64,000 nt of DNA from Candidatus Effluviviaceae Genus I sp. Lineage in GTDB: Bacteria > Joyebacterota > Joyebacteria > Joyebacterales > Joyebacteraceae. This document shows positions 61,298-63,161 of this stretch, one piece after another; the first letter of the stretch is position 1, and each line of letters opens with the position of its first letter. Position numbers and translations under genes: made by a program. The stretch is from NCBI GenBank assembly GCA_016867725.1, contig VGIX01000002.1, positions 36,314 through 100,313 of the forward strand, in the 5' to 3' direction. Under the pieces are notes generated by a model that did no database searches, was not told the DNA's origin, and was given only the letters and a program-made list of their open reading frames with translations.

Positions 61298-62092
61298 ATG
61301 GCCGGCGGGGGAGCGGTGTGGGGGCGCCTCATGCGCGGGATCGAGACGCTGGGCGCGCTCTATCTCGTCCTCCTGGATCCCGACGGCCGCGCTCCGGAGA
61401 ACAGCGCGCGCCTCGCCGCGAGCGCGGAGGCCGCGGGAGCCGATGCCGTCCTCGTGGGCGGAAGCCTGTCGCTTCGCGGACGCGTCGCCGAGTGCGTCCG
61501 CGCGGTGAAGGGTCGCGTCGGCATCCCCGTGATCATCTTCCCCGGGAACGCCGGCTTCGTGGTCCCGGACGCCGACGCCATCCTGTTCCTGTCGCTCGTG
61601 AGCGGGCGGAACCCGGAGCTTCTCATCGGCGAGCACGTGCGGTCGGCGCCGGCGATCCGCGAACTGGGGATCGAGCCCATCCCGACGGCGTACCTCCTCG
61701 TGGAGAGCGGCTCGACGACGTCGGTGGAGTTCATGAGCGGCACGCGCCCGCTTCCGAGGACCAAGCCCGACATCGCGATGGCGCACGCTCTGGCCGCCCA
61801 GTACCTCGGCATGCGCCTCGCCTTCTTCGACGCCGGGAGCGGAGCCCGCGATCCCGTGCCGGCGGAGATCGTGGCGGCGGTGTCGTCCTTCGTGGACATC
61901 CCGGTCATGGTCGGCGGAGGCATCCGGTCGCCCGAAACGGCCGTGGAGCTCGTGCGCGCGGGCGCGAGGCTCGTCGTCACGGGAGACGTCATCGAGCGCA
62001 CCGGCGACGTCTCGCTGCTGGAGGCCTTCGCGGCCGCGGTGCACGGCGCTGGGCGCCGGGCCGGCGGCGCGACGTTGCGGGAGGAGGGGTAG
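61298..62092 (+). CDS. GGGP synthase/PcrB-family prenyl-glyceryl-phosphate synthase (TIM barrel)
   Basis: LDPD, IPVIIFPGN, DAILFLSLVSGRNPE, PTAYLLVESGSTTS, LAFFDAGSG, IPVMVGGGIRS and VVTGDVIE match PcrB/GGGPS conserved blocks. GGAGGG RBS before the ATG at 61298; ATG at 61331 (MRGIETL) is the alternative. Confidence 0.75.
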   Translation: MAGGGAVWGRLMRGIETLGALYLVLLDPDGRAPENSARLAASAEAAGADAVLVGGSLSLRGRVAECVRAVKGRVGIPVIIFPGNAGFVVPDADAILFLSLVSGRNPELLIGEHVRSAPAIRELGIEPIPTAYLLVESGSTTSVEFMSGTRPLPRTKPDIAMAHALAAQYLGMRLAFFDAGSGARDPVPAEIVAAVSSFVDIPVMVGGGIRSPETAVELVRAGARLVVTGDVIERTGDVSLLEAFAAAVHGAGRRAGGATLREEG

Positions 62093-62096
62093 CCAC

Positions 62097-63161
62097 ATCC
62101 GAGCACTGGTCCTTTCGGGAGGGCGCGGCACGCGTCTGAGGCCGATCACGCACACGAGCGCCAAGCAGCTCGTGCCCATCGCCAACAAGCCCATTCTCTT
62201 CTACGGCCTCGAGGCCATCCGGGACGCCGGCATCGTCGACGTCGGCATCGTGGTGGGCGAGACACACCGCGACATCGAGGCGGCGGTGGGCGACGGGGCG
62301 CGGTTCGGACTGCGCGTCACATACATCAGGCAGGAAGCCCCCCTCGGCCTCGCGCACGCGGTCAAGATCTCCCGCGACTACCTTCGCGACGAGCCCTTCG
62401 TCATGTATCTCGGCGACAACCTCATCAAGGGCGGCATCGCCGCCTTCGTCGAGGAGTTCGGCCGGTTTTGCCCGAACGCGCAGATCCTGCTCGCGCGCGT
62501 GCGGAACCCGCAGGAGTTCGGCGTCGCCGAGCTGTCGGGCGAGCGCGTCGTCCGGCTTGAGGAGAAGCCGGCCCATCCGAGGTCCGACCTCGCGCTCGTC
62601 GGCGTGTACATGTTCGACGCGACCGTCTTCGACGCCGTGGACCGTCTGAAGCCGTCCAGGCGCAACGAGCTCGAGATCACGGACGCCATCCAGGGCCTCG
62701 TGGACGCGGGGCGCTCCGTGCGGGCGCACGAGGTGACCGGATGGTGGAAGGACACGGGGAAGCTCGACGACATCCTCGAGGCCAACCGCATGATCCTCGA
62801 GGGAGCGGCGCCGGACGTGCGCGGCCTTGTGAACGCGGCCTCGCGGATCGACGGCAGCGTTGTGGTCGAGGAGGGCGCGGTCGTGGAGGACAGCGTGCTC
62901 CGTGGCCCCCTCATCGTGGGGCAGCGCTCGAGGATCGTGCGTTCGTACATCGGGCCCTTCACCTCGATCTACCACGACGTCGTCGTCGAGAGTTCGGAGA
63001 TCGAGCACAGCATCGTGCTCGAGAACTGCAGGATCGTGAACCTGAGGCAGCGCATCGAGCGGAGCCTCATCGGCAAGGACGTGGAGATCGTGAAGTGCGC
63101 GAGCATGCCGAAGGCGTATCGCTTCATGGTGGGGGACGCCAGCCGCATCGAGGTGCCGTGA
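62097..63161 (+). CDS. rmlA: Glucose-1-phosphate thymidylyltransferase, long form with C-terminal LbH; apparent non-canonical start
   Basis: The essential N-terminal motif [34 protein letters not shown] starts at 62097. That is 25 codons upstream of the first canonical start (GTG at 62172) in this frame. GGGAGGAGGGG sits 7 nt before ATC at 62097. Confidence 0.65.
   Translation: [354 protein letters not shown]

Follow-up and report, generated by a model that had tools for sequence, protein, structure and literature searches.

Confirmed bacterial translation starts at codons other than AUG, GUG or UUG are very few. In Escherichia coli, infC and pcnB, both with AUU, are the only genes with confirmed non-canonical starts. 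Initiation there from AUC, AUA, AUU or CUG reaches 1-2% of that from AUG, and the product of an AUC-started reporter carries an N-terminal methionine (Hecht et al., bioRxiv 10.1101/063800). In Enterococcus faecalis, a rare ATT upstream of the annotated ATG attenuates the expression of ebpA, which was proven by stop-codon insertion and ATT-to-ATG swaps (PMC4447247). Here, we describe the start of rmlA, the gene of long-form glucose-1-phosphate thymidylyltransferase, in a 64,000-nt stretch of DNA (hereafter, the window) from Candidatus Effluviviaceae Genus I sp. (GenBank assembly GCA_016867725.1, contig VGIX01000002.1, positions 36,314 to 100,313 of the forward strand). No canonical start codon precedes the conserved N-terminus of this gene, and AUC at window position 62097 is very probably the start of a functional rmlA, helped by a strong Shine-Dalgarno (SD) sequence.

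Like infC, which encodes initiation factor 3 (IF3), and pcnB, rmlA has a near-cognate AUH start that is conserved, and like them it is an essential or housekeeping gene; in the E. coli genes the weak codon keeps translation low and dependent on start-codon discrimination. It differs from them in the codon itself (AUC here, AUA in three relatives), in the product, a sugar-nucleotide enzyme, and in an unusually long SD. Furthermore, the IF3 autoregulation of infC has no obvious counterpart in rmlA, and the resemblance is one by analogy. The case of ebpA is similar in that an annotated downstream canonical start was wrong, and automatic models of rmlA likewise start downstream, at a GTG. However, the ATT of ebpA is confined to its species, most other enterococci having ATG, whereas the ATH codon of rmlA is kept across a deep clade; moreover, the start of ebpA has been proven experimentally, while that of rmlA rests on comparative sequence evidence. 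The literature was searched for accounts of AUC starts in rmlA or in Eisenbacteria, and none was found.

The elements of the start region are as follows.

62079 to 62089, plus strand: SD-like purine run GGGAGGAGGGG, with two overlapping GGAGG cores, the second ending 9 nt before ATC
62090 to 62092, plus strand: TAG stop of the upstream gene of the geranylgeranylglyceryl phosphate synthase (GGGPS)/PcrB family, inside the SD-to-start spacer, 4 nt before ATC
62097 to 62099, plus strand: ATC, proposed initiation codon of rmlA, at the family Met1 position
62097 to 63161, plus strand: rmlA, long form, glucose-1-phosphate thymidylyltransferase, 354 codons and a TGA stop (63159-63161)
62106 to 62108, plus strand: CTG, rmlA codon 4, another near-cognate codon but an unlikely start
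62118 to 62138, plus strand: GGRGTRL (from translation), rmlA codons 8-14, the glycine-rich loop (G-loop) of the nucleotidyltransferase fold
62172 to 62174, plus strand: GTG, rmlA codon 26, the first canonical in-frame start, from which automatic callers derive a truncated model of 329 amino acids (aa)

The rmlA open reading frame (ORF) extends from TGA 61734, and the earliest ATG, GTG or TTG in it is GTG 62172, located 25 codons inside the conserved protein and past the GGxGTRL loop. A preliminary description of this DNA had pointed at the lack of a canonical start in that interval and at a strong SD followed by ATC at 62097, with the TAG of the GGGPS gene inside the same region; the window sequence bears out both statements, in coordinates as well as in bases. 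The spacer between the purine run and ATC consists of 7 bases, TAGCCAC. Near the conserved N-terminus, the only near-cognate codons are ATC 62097 and CTG 62106.

The product translated from ATC scored 463.8 bits against the NCBIfam profile TIGR01208 (rmlA_long), above the curated equivalog cutoff of 320.25, with residues 2-352 aligned on profile positions 1-352 of 353. The Pfam domain NTP_transferase (PF00483) was matched by residues 3-234 with 176.8 bits, and solved RmlA structures were matched at E = 1e-48 to 1e-37. Residue 2 of the product aligns with residue 2 of 4ho0, 6b5e and 2ggo, chains that begin from their natural methionine; from these profile and structure alignments, ATC 62097 therefore occupies the Met1 position of the family. 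Members of rmlA_long usually begin with MKAL[IV]LSGG, and the gene under study resembles typical members in its full-length colinearity and in the N-terminal motif (M)K-A-L-[IV]-L-S-G-G-x-G-T-R-L; typical members differ from it by an ATG, GTG or TTG start (110 of the 164 loci sampled) and by ordinary SDs (median -8.75 kcal/mol). The GGxGTRL loop, which we take to be the nucleotide-binding loop known from solved RmlA-type enzymes, is invariant among the orthologues as GGRGTRL, except for R/K at codon 10. A C-terminal left-handed beta-helix extension separates the long from the short form of the enzyme. The TIGR01208 match covers the C-terminal part of the product, and 2ggo and 5z09 align up to residue 330; the Pfam profile of this extension, LbH_EIF2B, was matched weakly (24.7 bits, under the cutoff of 54). 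The earlier suggestion that the product is colinear with E. coli RmlA needs to be modified: full-length colinearity with the family stands, but E. coli RmlA is of the short form and the gene described here belongs to the long-form family. The protein is predicted to act on dTTP and glucose-1-phosphate, the context being a gene of the RmlD fold directly downstream.

It should be considered whether ATC is simply a miscalled ATG, or a recent inactivating mutation that has made rmlA a pseudogene in this strain. A single C-to-G change in the third base would give ATG, which is also the commonest codon at the Met1 position in the family (85/164 loci). To the contrary, the truncated 329-aa model (P0001, this exact protein) is present on six contigs from public sequencing runs, and in the three that were retrieved (SRR7979709, SRR7989281 and SRR16108674) ATC and its flanks are identical to those of the window. 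These three independent assemblies, from different sequencing runs, differ from the window by 6-8 single-nucleotide polymorphisms over ~3.3 kb and also differ among themselves, i.e. they represent slightly different strains. Furthermore, ATC or ATA was found in all 14 distinct orthologues of the clade and in two further clades, and the full-length ORF, free of frameshifts and internal stops, attains the profile score given above. A base-call error was therefore rejected, as the three other assemblies share ATC; a pseudogenising substitution was rejected by ORF integrity and by the codon-position statistics, with codons 2-25 under strong purifying selection (see below). Both had been offered as options in the preliminary description, and we regard either as practically out of the question.

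The comparison included 14 distinct orthologues with protein identities of 73-100%, the DNA of which was recovered mostly through exact-protein look-ups, a metagenome scan having yielded at least one close relative, and the gene order alaS-GGGPS-rmlA-rmlD-like-SIS-domain is common to all of them. At the Met1 position, 13 of them carry ATC and the remaining one (L171) carries ATA. Codons 2-25 are variable at all 24 third positions, at 6 first and at 2 second positions, and pairwise codon differences amount to 1053 synonymous vs 93 non-synonymous. In the eight triplets upstream of ATC, read in the same frame, the relation is reversed (43 synonymous vs 592 non-synonymous). The constraint at the protein level therefore begins at the ATH codon. 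It should also be added that spacer lengths upstream of this codon differ among the relatives by non-multiples of three.

These data bear on the possibility that gene callers are right and that translation starts at GTG 62172, giving a 329-aa protein devoid of the N-terminal strand and of the GGxGTRL loop. This codon is the first canonical start, and the corresponding model is found in public catalogues (P0001, P0072, P0074/75 and P0083). However, the equivalent codon is GTT or GTC in 7/14 orthologues and therefore cannot be a conserved start; the orthologues do not start there, a comparison that the preliminary description had proposed. The 25 codons upstream of GTG are those under strong purifying selection, and the SD energy of GTG 62172 is -2.2 kcal/mol, i.e. 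essentially none. Moreover, by established knowledge of its role, the missing loop is the one that binds the nucleotide in all solved RmlA-type enzymes. We consider that GTG 62172 can hardly be the start of this gene. Catalogue entries for the nearest homologues have lengths of 350, 341 or 329 residues, which shows that other callers likewise missed a canonical start at the family N-terminus.

A fusion of GGGPS and RmlA by frameshift or readthrough was rejected, as the two genes are in different frames, gaps of 34-122 nt with in-frame stops separate them in relatives, and the upstream triplets are unconstrained in the rmlA frame. Another possibility is that AUC is used mainly by ribosomes re-initiating after the GGGPS stop (TAG 62090-62092), by translational coupling, and not by de novo SD-directed binding of the 30S subunit. 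The position of this stop inside the SD-to-start spacer, 4 nt before ATC, is in favour of it, and so is a mini-ORF in the relative L004, GTG-ATC-TAA, that ends 1 nt before its ATC. Nevertheless, 34-122 nt separate the PcrB stop from ATH in orthologues, which still keep ATH and the strong SD. Coupling is therefore not the general mechanism and may be a compatible add-on in this genome; as the main route to AUC it appears unlikely. The close apposition of the PcrB stop and ATC is specific to the lineage of the window, and only in the window does this ORF reach the rmlA SD. The three-codon mini-ORF of L004, found at this locus only, is located in the SD region, 10 nt upstream of ATC, and possibly represents a start-stop or re-initiation arrangement.

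A neighbour-joining tree of 157 distinct sequences places the window within a supergroup of 52; its named members are mostly metagenome-assembled genomes (MAGs) of Candidatus Eisenbacteria or Effluviviaceae. Within this supergroup the Met1 codon is ATC, ATA or CTG in 33/52 and ATG, GTG or TTG in 14/52. In 20 sequences, the stretch from the upstream in-frame stop to the ATH/CTG codon is free of canonical starts, and in 12 of them, among which is the window, so is the part up to the G-loop end, so an intact enzyme requires non-canonical initiation in these 12. In L004, L084 and L128 an in-frame TGA stands three codons before ATC; similarly, L008 has an in-frame TAG two codons before CTG at the Met1 position.

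A different arrangement was observed ~20 nt upstream of the match start in a sister clade (L011, L033, L043, L088 and L089), whose members have ACG as the Met1 codon. Three codons upstream, inside an SD-like AAAGGAGTTGATC, these loci carry TTG (CTG in L089), in frame in 5/5, and L011 and L088 have an additional in-frame ATG two codons upstream of ACG.

The conserved 3' tail of 16S ribosomal RNA (rRNA) reads 5'-GAUCACCUCCUUUCU-3'. Duplex energies were computed against this usual tail, which was assumed and may not be that of the host; an Rfam search found no rRNA in the 64-kb window. On this basis the SD of rmlA in the window has a duplex energy of -16.8 kcal/mol, a value attained by 0.12% of background 20-mers; a stronger pairing is predicted at two of the window's 44 gene starts. 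Where the window carries GGGAGGAGGGG, relatives carry cGAAAGGnnGGTGATc upstream of ATH, the complement of the conserved tail; an equivalent of the extended SD was found in every clade orthologue, and its spacing to ATH is 7-9 nt in relatives. Genes of the ATH/CTG type have a median of -16.8 kcal/mol vs -8.75 kcal/mol in homologues with canonical starts, and within the supergroup alone the values are -16.8 vs -9.1 kcal/mol. Furthermore, in 11 loci the SD of rmlA was set against those of 2-3 neighbouring genes and was the strongest in each locus (median -19.1 vs -10.45 kcal/mol). A regulatory RNA structure at the start was unsupported, with the fold of 62050-62150 giving z = -0.26 vs shuffles and no Rfam match in this region.

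It should be added that an extended SD, GGGAAGGACGTGATCGC, is also found at window positions 41770-41789 (plus strand), followed by GTG, with -18.4 kcal/mol at the gene start and -19.7 in a 16-mer scan; long complements to the anti-SD therefore accompany canonical starts as well in this genome.

Initiation at CUG 62106 (codon 4), also left open in the preliminary description, may be weighed on the same grounds. This codon precedes the G-loop and is among the near-cognate starts that translation table 11 permits, and a few homologues (L008, L093 and L149) have CTG as their Met1 codon. However, it is 18 nt past the SD core, and its SD energy in the usual position is -7.6 vs -16.8 kcal/mol for ATC. 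Clade members have CTG, CTC or CTT at codon 4, and homologues further away have TTA or TTG, i.e. it is unconserved as a start, whereas the preceding residues 2-3 (K/R-A) show conservation in the protein. A start at CUG is thus highly improbable.

The GTG inside the GGTGAT motif of relatives is positioned 7, 8, 9 or 10 nt from ATH and is in frame with it in only 7/18 cases, with one third being expected by chance. This near-chance framing indicates that the GTG behaves as SD and not as a start. As a general start, the GTG three codons upstream (as in the 357-aa models) is unlikely for the same two reasons, its framing and its place within GGTGAT.

To see whether the non-canonical start belongs to the gene or to the genome, ten other window genes were translated from their upstream stops and compared with NCBIfam profiles, of which eight could be judged. 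A canonical start was present at or before the profile N-terminus in 8/8 (PNPase, PgpA, TadA, NifS, RbfA, TruB, PorA and CinA); thus, the peculiarity is one of rmlA, and a genome-wide relaxed use of start codons was unsupported. A mechanical scan for strong SDs followed by ATH or CTG was too noisy, as SD-like strings are common inside G+C-rich genes.

Several points speak against an AUC start. Nine relatives have an in-frame GTG or TTG 3-4 codons upstream that could be the real start there. Codon 5 is GTG in 8/14 aligned orthologues (9/16 with L175 and L176), and initiation at it could retain the G-loop while losing most of strand beta-1. High G+C raises duplex energies generally, and the SD comparisons are not phylogenetically independent, their direction being consistent in every contrast. 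Finally, by analogy with E. coli, AUC used at 1-2% of the AUG level would give a low output, unless this lineage discriminates less strictly. Codon-5 GTG as a general start (as in the 350-aa models) was rejected for the window: rmlA there has GTC at codon 5, and the codon is unconserved, being GTG, GTC, GTT or GTA in the clade and ATT or ATC in distant homologues.

The rare AUC initiator, one of the options raised in the preliminary description, is on the other hand supported by the conserved ATH, the extended SD and the constraint boundary at ATC. From these comparisons we infer initiation with formylmethionyl transfer RNA (fMet-tRNA) at AUC, as well as what follows on its efficiency and regulatory purpose. 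Pairing of the extended SD (GGGAGGAGGGG here, cGAAAGGnnGGTGATc in relatives) would hold the 30S subunit and would put AUC, 7-9 nt downstream, in the peptidyl (P) site. The initiator fMet-tRNA would then read AUC with a third-position mismatch, and the N-terminus of the protein would be methionine, not isoleucine. The weak AUC probably sets a low rate of translation, for which the strong SD may partly compensate. In this genome only, ribosomes terminating GGGPS at TAG, 4 nt away, may additionally re-initiate at ATC.

The state of annotation in the clade (P0001-P0083; L004-L006, L022, L084 and L164-L176) is inconsistent, with many wrong models of the gene in public protein catalogues, and ATC is used in three NCBI records only. 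In these, the orthologues are started at the equivalent ATC, translated as methionine: P0041/L005 (WJLY01000241.1), P0035/L175 (WJMD01000081.1) and P0017/L176 (JBDRIO010000032.1). They come from MAGs of Candidatus Eisenbacteria/Effluviviaceae and have the same gene, synteny and ATC start as the window, with 75-78% identity; they differ in that the annotation was made by homology. Truncated models of 329, 341 or 350 aa lose part or all of the nucleotide-binding N-terminus, and the 357-aa models (V-[IV]-x-I-K-A-L) are probably over-extended, from the GTG belonging to the GGTGAT tail of the SD.

The genes on both sides of rmlA are the following.

61298 to 62092, plus strand: gene of the PcrB/GGGPS family (geranylgeranylglyceryl phosphate synthase-like), 264 aa, from profile matches and the call in the identical Logan contig L001
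63187 to 64000, plus strand: gene of the RmlD substrate-binding/epimerase fold (dTDP-4-dehydrorhamnose reductase-like), GTG start, from gene calls and Pfam in contigs L001-L003 and the ORF listing

The former matched NF003198 (276 bits), TIGR01769 GGGP (205 bits, cutoff 161.55) and Pfam PcrB (140.6 bits), and follows alaS immediately, in a bacterial setting; the latter continues past the window end. The order alaS-GGGPS-rmlA-rmlD-SIS-PRK is kept in all clade loci. Elsewhere in the window, Rfam identified on the plus strand a bacterial large signal recognition particle RNA (170 bits) and two clusters of three transfer RNA genes each (48272-48537, 47913-48207 and 38727-39019, respectively). The listed ORFs at 38838 and 48578 begin within or next to these RNA genes, and their listed starts may be unreliable. 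Apart from these, a very long ORF of 2413 aa is found at 5924-13165 (plus strand), with a coding-type G+C distribution (G+C at third codon positions, GC3, 0.88).

The near-cognate start is well known as a kind, and rmlA is a new, well-conserved case of it, whose association with an extended SD is unusually clear. The finding is a modest one: the mechanism is compatible with the textbook, and the NCBI pipeline already annotates some orthologues in this manner. As a tentative and rather doubtful extension by analogy, AUC together with the over-long SD might be a selected, ancient control device on the enzyme at the entry to dTDP-sugars in Eisenbacteria-like bacteria, kept to ~60-65% protein identity and making RmlA output depend on how strictly start codons are proofread (IF3 level, growth state or temperature), as happens with AUU in infC; or else the initiation machinery of this lineage might read AUC far better than that of E. 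coli. In pathway reconstructions, rmlA of these uncultured bacteria might be mistaken for a broken gene. Furthermore, with AUC kept across a deep clade and always paired with a near-complete complement of the 16S 3' tail, the rmlA clade lends itself to the study of how a strong SD and a weak start codon are balanced in nature, and bears on whether weak starts set expression levels beyond the classic case of infC.

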